Below, one piece after another: positions 22,962 through 29,832 of a stretch of DNA of 35,468 bases. The notes beneath the pieces were generated by a model. It was not told where the DNA came from, did not search any database, and saw only the letters and a list, made by a program, of their open reading frames with translations. Both the position numbers and the translations under genes were made by a program. Source of the DNA: a virus; UHGV virus genome UHGV-0114740. The stretch is one strand, 5' to 3'. Each line of letters opens with the position of its first letter. Position 1 is the stretch's first letter.

Positions 22962-24007
22962 TGAGCAGAAAAAATAAAAAATTGCGCATGAGTTCACGCA
23001 TTGATCTCGCTGATGCGCTCAGGAAAGAATCGTCGCTCAGTGCATTCACATTTGATGGTCCTTACCGCCTGACCGGGCATGACCTGCTGGACAATATGTA
23101 CTGTGCTGATAACGGTCGGTGGTATGAAACCCCGGTGGACTGGTACGGTCTGGCAAGAGCTGCCCGGCAAACGTCCTGGCATCAGTCTGCGCTTTACTTT
23201 AAGCGCAATGTATTACTCGGTTGCTACATCCCGCACCCGCTGCTTTCCCGGCAGGATTTCTCGGCGCTGGCGCTGGACTGGTTTGTGTTCGGTAACGCAT
23301 TCCTTGAGCTTCGGAGCAATATGCTCGGCGAACCGCTTAAATTACGGCACGCCCTGGCGAAATACATGCGACGCGGAAGCGATCTTGAATCATGGTGGTA
23401 TGTGCAGGATGGTAAGGACGCGTTTCAGTTTCGCCCTGGCAAAGTGTGCCACCTGATGAATCCTGACATTAACCAGGAAATCTACGGCATGCCGGAATAT
23501 CTCGGCGCATTACTCTCGGCCAGCCTGTCTCATTCGGCGGACATGTTCAGAAAACTGTATTACGACAACGGATCCCACGCCGGGTGCATCATCTACATCG
23601 GTGCAGCGCAGGTAAACCGCGAAAGCATGGACTCCCTGAAAGAAACGCTACAGGGTGCACGTGGTGGTGGTGCGTTTAAAAATGTGCTCATTCATGCGCC
23701 CAACGGGGGCAAAGAGGGAGTGCAAATTTTACCGTTCCAGCAGATCACCGCAAAGGATGAGTTCATGAATGTTAAGGCGGCATCCCGTGATGATGTGCTG
23801 GCTGCGCACCGCGTTCCGCCGCAACTGATGGGGGCGATGCCGGGCGAAAAAAGTGCGTTTGGCGATGTGGAGAAGGCTGCGCGGGTTTACGCAATTAACG
23901 AGCTGATGCCTGTCATGGAGGCCATGAAGCACATCAATGACTGGCTTGGCGAAGAGGTGATCCGCTTTAACCCTTACGCACTGTTAGACACCCAGCCCAC
24001 ATCCTGA
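22961..24007 (+). CDS. Q: Portal (capsid vertex) protein Q
   Basis: 348 aa directly after P with ATGA overlap; size and position as P2 gpQ. Confidence 0.85.
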   Translation: MSRKNKKLRMSSRIDLADALRKESSLSAFTFDGPYRLTGHDLLDNMYCADNGRWYETPVDWYGLARAARQTSWHQSALYFKRNVLLGCYIPHPLLSRQDFSALALDWFVFGNAFLELRSNMLGEPLKLRHALAKYMRRGSDLESWWYVQDGKDAFQFRPGKVCHLMNPDINQEIYGMPEYLGALLSASLSHSADMFRKLYYDNGSHAGCIIYIGAAQVNRESMDSLKETLQGARGGGAFKNVLIHAPNGGKEGVQILPFQQITAKDEFMNVKAASRDDVLAAHRVPPQLMGAMPGEKSAFGDVEKAARVYAINELMPVMEAMKHINDWLGEEVIRFNPYALLDTQPTS

Positions 24008-24333: not shown

Positions 24334-24472
24334 AAAAAACGCGTTTTTTTGTGCACGCACGGATCCTTGACGGATCCAGCCGCCACGGGGGCTGGAAGGG
24401 CAAAAAGTCGTTCAAAAAAATTGTGCAAATTTGTGCACTATTGTGCAGCAGGGCGATGCGCGATTATCGCCC
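24334..24472. repeat. Repeat cluster in the putative cos/packaging region: 16-bp perfect palindrome AAAAAACGCGTTTTTT, four TTGTGCA copies (three phased at 10 bp), palindrome GGGCGAT-n8-ATCGCCC
   Basis: Palindrome at 24334..24349; TTGTGCA at 24349, 24421, 24431, 24441; palindrome at 24451..24472. In P2, cos lies next to Q. The exact cos cleavage site was not identified. Confidence 0.4.
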
Positions 24473-25598: not shown

Positions 25599-25658
25599 CG
25601 TGTTTTCCTCGTGCGGGGCGACAGTGCACCCCGATAAAATTAAAAGCCGTCAAATTCG

Positions 25659-25970
25659 TCATTCAGGAAATAATGCCCGGATATTCCCTGCCATCTGACT
25701 GGTTATCTGTGCGGTTGGTACTGGCTGTGACACGGGGCGTTCTGTCCTGGTTTGTGTCACCGATAACGCCTCATCGTCAGCCCATGCAGCCAGTCGGTAA
25801 GCCTCTGCCGGATTCATTTTCAGAAGTGCCAGCCCGGCCAAAAAAGCCACGCGTTGGCCGCTTTTGCGGGCTTCTGGTGTAAGGCTGTCCAGCCAGGCAC
25901 ATGCTTCGCCTTCGTTCTTGACGGCGGCGGGCTTCAGATAGAAACTTATCCGTCTGGTTGGTGTCGTCAT
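25659..25970 (-). CDS. parR: ParR/StbB-like partition adaptor protein
   Basis: Start at internal Met (MTTPTRRISFYLKPA...) with SD AAGGAG, 4 nt after the parM stop. RRISFYLKP...LDSLTP..ARKSGQRVAFLAGLALL parallels plasmid R1 ParR (RRTIAFKLNP...LDSIPQGERSRLNRAALTAGLALY). Confidence 0.7.
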   Translation of the reverse strand: MTTPTRRISFYLKPAAVKNEGEACAWLDSLTPEARKSGQRVAFLAGLALLKMNPAEAYRLAAWADDEALSVTQTRTERPVSQPVPTAQITSQMAGNIRALFPE

Positions 25971-25974
25971 TGGT

Positions 25975-26934
25975 TTACTCCTTGTCCATTGCGTACAGCC
26001 CATTAACCAGAGCAAACTGTGGCACCCCGTCCGCGATGAAAGTCGCATTAACTCCGCAGGCTTCGCGGATAGCGGGTGCCACAATCTCCGCCCCTCCACC
26101 GACAACCATCACCCGCCCGTAACCCGAAAAACCCGCCAGCGCGCGGATCACGCGTTGTTTCAGTGTTTCTTCCTTTTCACGAATAACCGCCATCAGGCTG
26201 TCGTAATGCGCGTCATTGTGGATGTGCTGGCGCAGCCAGGCTTCATCATGGCGATGTTCGATAATGGTATTGGCGATGTGGTGACTGGTACGCATACCGT
26301 TAGTGGCCATCACCGACAGTACGGCATCGGCCATCAGGGAAACGCCTACGTGTGGATCGCAAAACACCTGGCTGATACCTGCCAGTTGTCCCTGAACCTT
26401 TGCCACATCCAGCGTGGTTCCGCCTAAATCCACAATCAGCAGGGATTCAAACGGACTCATGTCAGCCAGTGCTTTAAAGCCAGCCGGAATGGATTCAGGC
26501 ATAACCCGTACGTTACGGATAGTGAATGCTTCGCCGTTCTGGTACTCCACCGGGCGCATGACGTTCGCTTTTTTGCGGTTGATGTTGGCCATGTCCGGCT
26601 GTGCGTTTGTGTCGAAATACTCGCTCAGTGGTAGGGTGACAACCACATCCACTTCCTGTGGTGTGATGCCTGATTTGACCAGTGCGTGATGAATGGCAAC
26701 GACATTCACATCGCTGTACTGGTACTGCGTGTCGGTCGTCTGGACAAAGCGATCGCTGACCGGATCAAAGCCATAGCGCACGCCATCAAGCATGTAGTTC
26801 GCGGGCTGCGTGCCACCGAACGGCGCAGACCATTCCGACTTGAAGCTGTTCGGGCTGATGGCGTTGCGGCGTTCGCCGTTCTCAGTCCATGCCAGCTTGA
26901 TGTTGGTGGAGCCGTCGTCGATACAAATTTTCAT
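25975..26934 (-). CDS. parM: ParM/StbA-like actin-family partition ATPase
   Basis: MKICIDDGSTNIKLAW, ISPNSFKSEW, YSDVNVVAIHHAL, VMPESIPAG, LLIVDLGGTTLD, VMVVGGGAE, LVNGLY all parallel plasmid R1 ParM blocks. Confidence 0.85.
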   Translation of the reverse strand: MKICIDDGSTNIKLAWTENGERRNAISPNSFKSEWSAPFGGTQPANYMLDGVRYGFDPVSDRFVQTTDTQYQYSDVNVVAIHHALVKSGITPQEVDVVVTLPLSEYFDTNAQPDMANINRKKANVMRPVEYQNGEAFTIRNVRVMPESIPAGFKALADMSPFESLLIVDLGGTTLDVAKVQGQLAGISQVFCDPHVGVSLMADAVLSVMATNGMRTSHHIANTIIEHRHDEAWLRQHIHNDAHYDSLMAVIREKEETLKQRVIRALAGFSGYGRVMVVGGGAEIVAPAIREACGVNATFIADGVPQFALVNGLYAMDKE

Positions 26935-26965
26935 GTCGCTTTTCCTTATGTTGATTAATTAATCG

Positions 26966-27074
26966 TTTACGGGATTCTGAAATCCCGCTTTTGCCTGTTT
27001 TGTGCGCACTTCATGTTTTATGGCGCGTTTTTTGCTCATTTACGGGATTTGTGAATCCCGTTTCTGTCTGTTTT
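26966..27074. repeat. Two ~36-bp direct repeats, each with a 7-bp-stem palindrome (CGGGATT n4 AATCCCG), upstream of parM and abutting the A stop codon; parC-like centromere or operator candidate
   Basis: R1 26966..27001 TTTACGGGATTCTGAAATCCCGCTTTTGCCTGTTTT; R2 27039..27074 TTTACGGGATTTGTGAATCCCGTTTCTGTCTGTTTT; 73 bp apart. Confidence 0.5.
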
Positions 27075-29832
27075 TGTTTCCACTGGTCAGTCCACCCCGC
27101 AGCAGGTCTGCTTTGCGGCGGGCGCGTTCAGTGGTTTCACTGATTCTCTGTTCGTGCTCTGCGTCGCGGATGGCGCGCAGCATGTCAGAAAGCACGGTAA
27201 CGGGTGTTTTCATGGTGTTCTGGTCCTGCTGAAGTGTGAATGCCAGGCGTGCGGCGGCTTCGGGGTCTGATGCCCCCAGCTGTTCCAGGTAGCTGACGAC
27301 CGGGTTATGGCGGATCTCCGTGCTGCTTACGCCGTGGTTACGGCTCAGGCGCTGCCAGAGCTGCGTGATTCGGCTGTCCGGGCGGGTATCCGGTTTGCGT
27401 ACAATTTCAAATCCCTGCGGTGCAATGATGCTGCCGTCAACGTACAGACTGCCGCCCCGTAACAGGTGCTGCATCTGCTGTTCACCAATATGCAGGCCGA
27501 GAGATTCAGCAGACTCCCGCCATTCTTTAGCGAGTAACTCGTGGTTATCAGGCAAAGGCTGTGGCTGTTTGCGGCTCTGTGTCCAGTTCTGCATTTCATC
27601 GCTGCTGTTTTTTGCCTGTTTGTCACGAAGCGAACACATCAGCGCCCGGCGTTCGTGCCGTTTCAGTGAATGCATCCATTCGTTCACTTCAACGCCGTCA
27701 GGGAGCTGCGGCCACGGTGCTGGCCGTTCTTCCGGCTGTTCTGTCCCGTTGTTGTCTGTTTCCTGTACACGGGGACAGTTATTGCCACGAGTCCAAGGGG
27801 CGGCAGGGCCGCCCTGAAGGTCAAAACCATTTTCGCTGGCGCTGTCTTTCGCTTCCGGTTTGCGTCTTACCAGCTTCCAGTTATCCGGATGCGTGCACAC
27901 ACGGGAGGATTCCCCGATGAGTGGTGACCAGATCCCGTAAATCTGTACGCTCTGTTCGCCGTAATCGTTCAGCTCATCGGCGAGGTCGTAGGCGGTGCGA
28001 ATCAGGTAGTCTTTGCGTGGAACAAGTACGCCGCCCTGTTTCTCTATGTAGGTGGCAAAACATCCGGCATCAGCGGCGGCAAGAACCGCATCCATTGCGT
28101 CATCCTTCAGCCGTTGCGGGCCTTCCGGGTTGCGTGCCATCTGGCTGGCAAGGCGGCGCAGTTCACGCCATACCTGGCGGGAGGGGATGCCAAAGAACTG
28201 GAACTGGCGGACCCGGTGAAGGCGCGCCCAGCCGATGGCGCGTTCCACGCTCTCGGCCATTGATTTTCCGGTTTCGTGGTCAACGCGTGGTTTGCCCGTT
28301 TTCGGGTCGATGCCATCCACGGCGCGGCTGTCCAGGTTTTTTCCGATGTAGGTCGCGATATAGCTGGTTGGTGTGCCTTTTGAGCCGTCTACGTACTCCG
28401 CCTTAAAGCGCGGAGTAATATCATCGCCCAGCTCGTGACGATCTTCCTGAATGGCAATATCGCGGGCGTGGGACACAATGGTGTCGATTTCTTCCGGATG
28501 GGCAAAGACCATCATATGCCAGTGCACGGTGCCGTCATGGTGAGGCTCCACCGTGCGGATGCCATACCAGCGCAGGCCGTCGCGGTTCAGTTTCTTGCGG
28601 ACCGCCGCAAAAAACGTGTTAACCAGGTAATCGCTGGAGTCGCGCATGGTGGCCCCGTTCCATTTGGGATTCGGATGACCGTTCTCTGTTGTGGCGTGGT
28701 ATTTTGACGGGCAGGTGACAGTCAGAAACACCGCTTTGTCGCCACGGGCTTCGGCCAGAAGTTCCAGCCCCTTCATGGTGGCCATCATTTCTGCCTTACG
28801 GTGAACCGGGTTACTTACTCCCGCGTAATACACTGTCTCGAGATCAATCGTGAACCCATCTTCGTTTTCCAGCATGAAACTTTTCAGGAAATCGCGTGTT
28901 TTCTCGCGCTGTGCGCGAAACTCGCTTAACGCGTCCTGGCTCAGATAGGGCGATGTCTTTCTGGAAACCAGACAGGCGGCGCGGAGTTGTTCTTCTCTCC
29001 ACTCGCAACGTAACAGCCACAGTTTGCGTTTCCACCATTCCGCACAGGTCAGGCGTAGGATTGCGCCCGGCAGCAGTTCCGTGTCCGGTTCGTTCCTCCG
29101 GTCTTTGTCTGTTGTCAGTGCGTCATAATGTGGAGGCATGGCGTGCAGGTGTAACGCCATGCGGGCCAGCATCTGATACGCCTTCAGGGTTACATCCATG
29201 GTCAGCTCGCCATCGGTCGCGCCAAAGCCATTGCAGAGTTTTTCGAAGGTGCTGCTGAACATCGCCGCCGTCATGGTGGCCAGCGTCTGTATCTGGTGCT
29301 TGTTGAGCTGCGGCAGGTAAAGCAAATCGTCCAGGCGTTCGCGTCCGGCAAGGGCGCGATAACCCCGTGTCAGCCAGCGGTGGTCGGTGCGGTCCAGACG
29401 TTCGAATATTTTGCGCAGGGTTCCGCGCGCGTAGCGTTCAGCCTGCCAGCTCTTTTTGCCTTTCTGGCGATCGGCTTCCTGTTTTTTGCGCAGGAAGGAG
29501 AGGTGGCGAATAAGCGGATCGCGCAGATAGGACGGCAGCAGGCGCAGCGAGGCCATGGCTTCATCCACCGCGCCGCGTGCCTGTTTTCTGGCGTCTCCTG
29601 CCAGTGTGATGGTTTTGTCCTGTTTTTCCTGTGCGTCCAGGCTTTTATTAATCAGGTTGCCCAGCGGCGTGGCGGAGAACGCCGCATCAGCCATTTCCTG
29701 GCGGCGCTCGTTCTCTGCCCGGTAAGCATCCAGCCAGGAGGAAAGCGCGGATTCAGGAGCGGGGATCCCCGTTCCTTCACGCCCCACTGCGTGGCGCGGT
29801 TGTTGCCAGTCCCTGATGTACTCTGCCGTCAT
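27040..29832 (-). CDS. A: Replication initiation protein A (rolling-circle HUH endonuclease)
   Basis: 930 aa; contains HWHMMVF (HUH-like) and SYIATYIGK (paired catalytic Tyr) as in P2 gpA; appears longer than I remember P2 A to be. Confidence 0.85.
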   Translation of the reverse strand: MTAEYIRDWQQPRHAVGREGTGIPAPESALSSWLDAYRAENERRQEMADAAFSATPLGNLINKSLDAQEKQDKTITLAGDARKQARGAVDEAMASLRLLPSYLRDPLIRHLSFLRKKQEADRQKGKKSWQAERYARGTLRKIFERLDRTDHRWLTRGYRALAGRERLDDLLYLPQLNKHQIQTLATMTAAMFSSTFEKLCNGFGATDGELTMDVTLKAYQMLARMALHLHAMPPHYDALTTDKDRRNEPDTELLPGAILRLTCAEWWKRKLWLLRCEWREEQLRAACLVSRKTSPYLSQDALSEFRAQREKTRDFLKSFMLENEDGFTIDLETVYYAGVSNPVHRKAEMMATMKGLELLAEARGDKAVFLTVTCPSKYHATTENGHPNPKWNGATMRDSSDYLVNTFFAAVRKKLNRDGLRWYGIRTVEPHHDGTVHWHMMVFAHPEEIDTIVSHARDIAIQEDRHELGDDITPRFKAEYVDGSKGTPTSYIATYIGKNLDSRAVDGIDPKTGKPRVDHETGKSMAESVERAIGWARLHRVRQFQFFGIPSRQVWRELRRLASQMARNPEGPQRLKDDAMDAVLAAADAGCFATYIEKQGGVLVPRKDYLIRTAYDLADELNDYGEQSVQIYGIWSPLIGESSRVCTHPDNWKLVRRKPEAKDSASENGFDLQGGPAAPWTRGNNCPRVQETDNNGTEQPEERPAPWPQLPDGVEVNEWMHSLKRHERRALMCSLRDKQAKNSSDEMQNWTQSRKQPQPLPDNHELLAKEWRESAESLGLHIGEQQMQHLLRGGSLYVDGSIIAPQGFEIVRKPDTRPDSRITQLWQRLSRNHGVSSTEIRHNPVVSYLEQLGASDPEAAARLAFTLQQDQNTMKTPVTVLSDMLRAIRDAEHEQRISETTERARRKADLLRGGLTSGNKNRQKRDSQIP

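Follow-up and report, generated by a model that had tools for sequence, protein, structure and literature searches.

Two phased dyad-symmetric repeats upstream of parM in a P88-like prophage: a predicted parC-like site for ParR

ParMRC systems are textbook actin-like machines for DNA segregation; the centromeres described for them lie on low-copy plasmids and consist of direct iterons in arrays. What is the role of a pair of palindromic repeats that lies directly upstream of parM in an integrating phage? The window analyzed here is the whole 35,468-nt stretch of viral DNA (UHGV-0114740), which belongs to a P88-like phage of the P2-like group (genus Xuanwuvirus, Peduoviridae). A 600-bp query around the repeats matches 14 phage records at 95–97% identity. 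When 351 bp comprising the repeats and their flanks (window 26850–27200) are used as query, 1371 out of the 5426 complete genomes of E. coli give a match, and one of these matches is prophage Sp13 of O157 Sakai. The features that matter for the question are the following.

25659–25970, minus strand: parR, encoding a ribbon-helix-helix-family adaptor of 103 aa (Pfam PF10784, E 4e-24).
25975–26934, minus strand: parM, encoding an actin-like segregation ATPase of 319 aa (Pfam StbA_N, E 1.5e-82; ParM C-terminal domain, E 1e-68).
26935–26962, minus strand: parM leader of 28 nt, with TTAATCAA at 26958–26951, the Shine–Dalgarno sequence AAGGA at 26947–26943 and the ATG at 26934.
26963–27001: proximal 39-nt repeat, with the dyad CGGGATT-CTGA-AATCCCG at 26970–26987, centered 44.5 bp upstream of the parM ATG.
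27002–27035: variable spacer of 34 nt between the repeats.
27036–27074: distal 39-nt repeat, with the dyad CGGGATT-TGTG-AATCCCG at 27043–27060, centered 117.5 bp upstream of the parM ATG.
27040–29832, minus strand: A, encoding a P2-type replication endonuclease of 930 aa (Pfam Phage_GPA, E 9e-131).

A repeat search reports these two direct repeats, which are 79% identical and lie 73 bp apart from start to start, as one family. The original prediction had given repeats of about 36 bp and about 80% identity at a distance of 73 bp; the spacing is confirmed, and size and identity are corrected to 39 nt and 79%. It had also read CGGGATT-n4-AATCCCG in each repeat, and indeed both contain a perfect palindrome with 7-bp arms and a 4-nt loop. 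Both repeats had been placed between A and parM. This is correct for the proximal one only, as the distal repeat overlaps the last 11 codons and the stop codon TAA (27042–27040) of A. Neither do the repeats fill the whole parM upstream region, of which the spacer and the leader are separate parts. The pair is unusual within its genome: allowing at most two mismatches, the dyad is found only twice in the 35.5-kb window against 0.15 matches expected, and none of 200 dinucleotide-preserving shuffles of the window contains a pair of same-arm palindromes within 150 bp. The repeat region additionally has a 10.5-bp AA/TT periodicity with a power of 1.37, which places it in the top 0.8% of the 150-bp windows of the genome and below plasmid parC (1.7–2.9).

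On the minus strand the gene order is A, parM, parR. The hairpin 3′ of parR (CGGGGTGCACTGTCGCCCCG, 25605–25660) has no T-run, and the first terminator-like site on this strand is located at 24438–24423, after two more ORFs (one encoding an unknown protein of 162 aa, the other Ead/Ea22-like), which suggests that A-parM-parR-orf162-ead is one transcription unit. Since this apparent operon extends from A to the terminator-like site, parMR would be expressed together with the early lytic genes.

The 3′ end of A is a first indication of the level at which the distal dyad is constrained. The A-run at 27071–27075 reads AAAAA in the window and AAAAAA in most relatives; because of this one missing base, A of the window stops just after the distal dyad at 930 aa and ends in ...NKNRQKRDSQIP. 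In P88 and most relatives A has 940 aa, crosses the distal dyad in another frame, ends in ...NKKQTETGFTNPVNEQKTRRDI and has its stop codon in the spacer, 77 nt before parM. Evidently, the last 10–20 residues of A are dispensable or frame-tolerant. Across relatives the distal dyad is translated as RDSQIP-stop, TGFTNP, RDS-stop, GIEETQ or GQQKPE. Since the dyad is kept in several frames, the constraint is on the nucleic acid and not on the protein.

Both products of the downstream genes belong to families known from plasmid partition. ParM matches the structures of R1 ParM (1MWK and others) over residues 2–316 with an E-value of about 1e-92, and the ParR-family profile matches the structure of pB171 ParR (2JD3; E 1.6e-14). 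In the prophage population both genes are intact and under purifying selection, with a pN/pS of 0.065 for parM and 0.19 for parR. ParR of the window combines a conserved N-terminal strand, RRISFYLKP, with a C-terminal tail, NIRALFPE. In all 28 ParR variants compared, which are 42–95% identical to that of the window, RRI(S/N)FYLKP and the C-terminal NI..FP are kept and the linker is replaced wholesale. An AlphaFold2 model of ParR built on a 28-sequence alignment is of low confidence, with a pLDDT of 55 and the N-terminal strand not modeled. ParR is also mosaic (window 25659–25970; 4501–4815 in L103–L105): the N-terminal ~50 aa and the last 8 aa are nearly invariant and the linker is swapped between alleles, which suggests recombination or relaxed constraint in this part of the protein. 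The three loci L103–L105 have a ParR that is only 53–57% identical to that of the window, next to a ParM of 98–99% identity and unchanged dyads.

If the repeats serve parMR, they should be found where parMR is found. To this end, 85 relatives were aligned that had been collected regardless of the dyads, on the basis of having parMR and sufficient upstream sequence for alignment. The dyads are present in 80 of these 85 close relatives, and a complete relative of 34.5 kb has exactly two of them, at the same position as in the window. The test that had been set for the original prediction was whether P2-like phages without parMR contain the repeats unchanged. In E. coli, the prophages L007 and L008 are of this kind; their A is related, with ~100 bp near its 3′ end matching the window at 85–92%. 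In ~8 kb of these prophages there is no such dyad, so the hypothesis survives. The borders of homology point in the same direction. The repeats are found in three unrelated upstream contexts, i.e., the A tail as in the window, a zinc-finger-like ORF153 (L006, L052, L105) and a third sequence (L065), and homology to the window begins at 27075/27076, at most 2 bases from the outer end of the distal repeat. Judged from these alignments, the repeats appear to belong to the par cassette rather than to A, which is a neighbor of the cassette and not part of it. The outer end of the distal repeat would then mark the precise limit of a mobile par cassette and could help to annotate prophages.

Between A and the portal gene, L007 (1249–3756) and L008 (1395–3922) carry three unannotated genes on the opposite strand (~458, 113, and 265 aa) that are unrelated to parMR. 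This position thus looks like a variable cargo hotspot. A PADLOC analysis of parM, parR, the downstream ORFs and these replacing cargo genes gave no matches. Another observation concerns a 226-kb contig of a Gram-positive assembly, Vagococcus sp. WN89Y (NZ_JBQPOM010000071.1; L011), in which the cassette is 97% identical to the one of E. coli. Most likely this is contamination.

More distant relatives reveal which part of the site is kept over larger distances. By protein searches and contig look-ups, diverged parMR cassettes were found in P2-like prophages, downstream of A. Other searches added little: a ParM search of genome contigs returned only three loci, all of at least 97% identity, an IMG/VR scan with alignment only 99% relatives, and scans with ParM of Hafnia and Plesiomonas almost nothing. 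The positions of the dyad centers relative to the parM ATG are as follows.

Window (reference ParM): −117.5 and −44.5.
L106 (ParM 94% identical): −116.5 and −43.5.
L012, Hafnia (ParM 62% identical): −120.5 and −47.5.
L014, Plesiomonas (ParM 62% identical): −123.5 and −51.5.

Upstream of the parM ATG there are exactly two GGG-N10-CCC dyads in each of these relatives, in a region of 200 bp for L106 and of 300 bp for L012 and L014, and the chance of finding such a pair is at most 2e-4 per 150-bp region. In these three and in the close relatives, the dyads are spaced by 72–74 bp. The diverged relatives do not keep the loops, the outer C-G pair, the spacer or the A-rich flanks, nor is the A-tract phasing, measured as 10.5-bp AA/TT periodicity, seen in L012 or L014. 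In L012, A is separated from the dyads by an unrelated ORF of 167 aa, which overlaps each of the two. The genes that always accompany the dyads in the window, L106, L012, and L014 are parM and parR only. Besides the dyads, the octamer TTAATCAA (26951–26958, minus strand) is common to the window and the Hafnia and Plesiomonas loci, with different flanks. A −10-like element is one possibility for this octamer, a further binding site another.

The same cassette has a different cis architecture in a sister clade of Serratia and Enterobacter prophages (ParM 54–59%). Here, elements of the type TTAAAcGGC lie 93–99 bp apart upstream of parM, and between them there is an inverted repeat with arms of 19–20 bp (AGGAACGAAATAGAAAAAT...) and a center of 26–28 nt. 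The inverted repeat is perfect in L015 (4882–4947) and L098 (3881–3946), and its arms are 85% complementary in L099 (3883–3950). The N-terminal strand of ParR differs along with the site. ParR of Hafnia and Plesiomonas, with GGG/CCC dyads, keeps TRR(I/V)SFYL; the strand reads NRKISFYL in the Serratia/Enterobacter clade, with its different sites, NRKCSFYIYP in the nearest plasmid loci (ParM ~52%), with T-rich direct iterons, and RRTIAFKLNP in R1-type loci, with AAACCC iterons. This pattern, which comes from few clades (two), is suggestive of ParR strand and site co-varying.

Altogether, the repeats are probably a parC-like centromere, bound by ParR and possibly serving as an operator as well, of a phage type II (ParMRC-like) partition cassette. 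What is conserved are two G/C triplets per site, at a fixed distance from each other, and a distance between the sites of about seven helical turns, and this is therefore the signature of a protein site on duplex DNA, not of an RNA hairpin or a terminator. The locus has several properties of a type II partition system: an actin-like ParM is encoded beside the site, a ParR-family gene follows downstream, the cis site is directly upstream of parM, and the ParR tail NI..FP is invariant in the 28 variants. A tandem array of direct iterons, another property of such systems, is not what is found here, as there are two 39-nt repeats with one dyad each. The repeats are therefore called a parC-like site of variant architecture and not a canonical parC. 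The preference of the original prediction for protein binding (a putative ParR centromere/operator) over termination is supported, as the dyads track parMR and the terminator-like appearance is confined to the E. coli clade.

It has to be considered whether the dyads could act as RNA instead. On the sense (minus) strand they would form stem-loops that affect the processing or stability of the early transcript or, as attenuators, adjust the ratio at which A and parMR are expressed, with ParR uninvolved. We consider this improbable. The minus-strand hairpins do fold well (−11.0 and −11.7 kcal/mol, z about −3.8), and the site is found at a gene junction inside an operon, as such elements would be. 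The pattern of variation among the 85 relatives can also be read in this way, since the loops vary and the arms are kept: mean heterozygosity is 0.16 in the loops, 0.07 in the spacer and 0.04 in the arms. Among close relatives the arms and the non-palindromic parts of the repeats that flank them are conserved to about the same degree, only the loops and the spacer being more variable. Two single substitutions in the arms are common. The change of CCC to CCT in the proximal arm preserves a G-U pair on the sense strand, whereas the frequent change of T to C in the distal arm results in a C-A mismatch there; both are single transitions, and compensatory arm changes are not seen in the 85 relatives. 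The diverged loci are more telling. In L012 and L014 only a GGG/CCC stem of 3–4 bp with a 10-nt loop is left, and at the distal L012 site folding is not better than in shuffles (z = 0.03); the pair of dyads and the distance between them are kept nonetheless. Moreover, neither hairpin is followed by a U-run on the sense strand, Rfam 15 gives no match at E ≤1 for 26700–27300 on either strand, and a fixed spacing of seven helical turns has no obvious meaning for an RNA.

Alternatively, the dyads could be the site of another protein, i.e., the phage A protein, a replication or regulatory factor or a host factor, or they could be part of a replication origin. P2-family origins (P2, 186) lie within A, and the distal copy overlaps the end of this gene. 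We see only a slight chance for this reading, because parM and parR are the only constant companions of the dyads in the window, L106, L012, and L014, and the rest of the genome contains no additional dyad of this kind. A role in replication origin function, which the original prediction had left possible, is contradicted by the distribution of the dyads and was rejected: they are absent from L007 and L008 despite the related A, and in L012, L105, and L006 they lie next to ORFs other than A or have other genes between them and A.

Lastly, intrinsic terminators on the plus strand, stopping antisense transcription from the late or cargo side from entering the early operon, are very improbable and were rejected as the main explanation: L012 and L014 have the homologous dyads but not the hairpin and T-run, no gene lies upstream on the plus strand for ~3 kb, the T-runs are short and interrupted, the z-scores are weaker than on the minus strand (−1.6 and −2.7), and terminators leave two copies at a fixed 73-bp phase unexplained. 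The resemblance itself, as the original prediction had noticed, is real. Both dyads have stems of 7–8 bp with four G-C pairs and T-rich tails on this strand, fold at −9.1 and −10.2 kcal/mol and score as weak terminators. Its other observation, that no plus-strand gene reads into the repeats, also stands, as no credible one was found; the nearest is the portal gene, which ends at 24007 and has separate terminator-like sites at its end.

Returning to the reading as a parC-like site for ParR, a possible working mechanism can be outlined, in which we infer ParR binding, stoichiometry, filament capture and regulation from the sequences. Each repeat would provide one 18-bp dyad with the core GGGAYT-N4-ARTCCC, the half-sites of which are about one helical turn apart. 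ParR, as a ribbon-helix-helix protein, would read the half-sites by means of its N-terminal β-strand RRISFYL, each dyad probably being occupied by a dimer of dimers. The distance of 73 bp, i.e., about seven helical turns, would bring both dyads to one side of a segment that has phased A-tracts and is probably curved, so that two ParR complexes could form one compact nucleoprotein structure. The AA/TT periodicity likewise suggests curvature that aids the formation of a single complex. The C-terminal tails of ParR (NIRALFPE) would capture the ends of ParM filaments, which in turn would push or position the phage DNA. It is doubtful whether two dyads can build a scaffold that caps a filament, because there are only four half-sites compared to ten iterons in R1. 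A second possible role follows from the location of the complex at the junction of A and parM within the early operon, where it may dampen transcription into parMR as an operator or roadblock. A scan of the window, L016, L012, and L014 gave no sigma-70 promoter between the dyads or next to them; the same scan also misses the promoter region of an R1-type parC and finds the IncL/M promoter. Possibly, parMR are read through from the early operon. With such early expression of parMR, the main role of the site may be that of a centromere on phage DNA that is replicating or has just become circular.

A more specific proposal is that P88-like and related P2-like phages have a type II centromere of minimal size, with ParR reading the inverted half-sites of two phased 18-bp dyads in place of tandem direct iterons, and that ParMRC, rather than serving classical plasmid inheritance, positions or segregates the circular DNA of the phage, either in early lytic replication or in an episomal carrier state. 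This is conceivable, and we put it forward as tentative and rather unlikely in this full form. Separately, a complete P88-like genome of 34461 bp (NZ_CP148288.1; L101) has been deposited as a circular ‘plasmid’ of an E. coli isolate from a cat. It holds integrase, cox, A, parMR and the late genes. The record could represent a circular form that arose by induction or a true episomal carrier state, and in the latter parMRC would have a purpose.

Public records already carry annotations of parM and parR for these prophages, and a literature search found no paper on the cis site or on the function of parMR in P88-like or P2-like phages. What is added here is that a homologous ParMRC cassette resides in the early operon of an integrating P2-like prophage, with its cis site reduced to two phased dyads. 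If ParR binds these dyads, they define the minimal DNA for nucleating a ParR-ParM complex, ParR is able to read inverted half-sites, and dyad mutants become a handle on the role of an actin-like system in an integrating phage, i.e., positioning versus a carrier state. If, in addition, the tentative proposal of a minimal centromere is true, this ParR would be the first one shown to bind sites with dyad symmetry, and among the integrating phages of enterobacteria the site would be the first functional ParMRC centromere, one that about a quarter of the complete E. coli genomes contain.

How does the phage site compare to known systems? One reference is parC of plasmid R1 (Dam & Gerdes, 1994; Hoischen et al., 2008), which consists of two clusters of repeats around a spacer in curved DNA, with about one ParR dimer per 11-bp iteron (PMC2241845). 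The phage locus resembles it in being directly upstream of parM, with parR downstream, and in its bipartite arrangement of blocks around a non-repeated spacer; the AA/TT periodicity of the window hints at phased A-tracts as a further parallel. The spacer at 27002–27035 has the position of the promoter-bearing spacer of plasmid parC. The ParM and ParR families are homologous to those of R1, with ParM being only ~47% identical. The phage half-site AA(A/T)CCC also resembles the core AAACCC of the R1-type iterons in L004, a resemblance that is no more than that. In other respects the two differ. R1 parC has two sets of five tandem 11-bp iterons in 159 bp, with a promoter spacer of 39 bp, whereas the phage has two single dyad-symmetric sites of 18 bp. 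Moreover, the distal phage site is inside the 3′ end of the upstream gene, and the replicon is an integrating P2-like phage and not a low-copy plasmid.

The lack of direct iterons also sets the phage site apart from other plasmid systems. Arrays of direct iterons are present in R1 (2 × 5 × 11 bp), pSK41 (4 × 20 bp), and pCW3 (4 × 17 bp), but not in the phage. According to a survey, all ParR proteins that had been characterized by 2018 bind direct repeats (bioRxiv 10.1101/462192). The parMR loci of IncL/M and IncI-gamma/K plasmids (L001, L002), which encode the closest plasmid ParM (~52%), share the gene order of the phage. In L002 (IncL/M) the two iteron clusters are also 73 bp apart, and they flank a promoter, TTTACA-17-AATAAT. 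The IncL/M and IncI-gamma/K sites themselves are T-rich direct iterons of 10–11 bp without GGG/CCC dyads, and the ParR strand reads NRKCSFYIYP compared to TRRISFYLKP in the phage.

Dyad symmetry as such is tolerated by ribbon-helix-helix proteins, which can read inverted repeats. On the operators of Arc, Mnt, and CopG, and on the heptads of omega, which are direct or inverted, a dimer binds per half-site and adjacent dimers are one turn apart. These four proteins are transcriptional repressors, omega being a type Ib centromere-binding protein as well; to our knowledge, none of them is the ParR of a ParM system.

A parallel in a prophage is AlpA-AlpC-alpS of the Corynebacterium prophage CGP3, for which a role in the replication and positioning of phage DNA, and not in plasmid inheritance, has been shown (Donovan et al., 2015; PMC4446434). 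There too, a prophage encodes both an actin-like filament and a DNA-binding adaptor, and the repeats that the adaptor binds lie in its own promoter region. Neither the actin-like lineage nor the adaptor is related to those described here, alpS consists of 24 short TTAAnnG repeats and not of two dyads, and the adaptor gene comes first. As a functional analogy for what an actin-like cassette may do in an integrating phage, CGP3 is nevertheless plausible.
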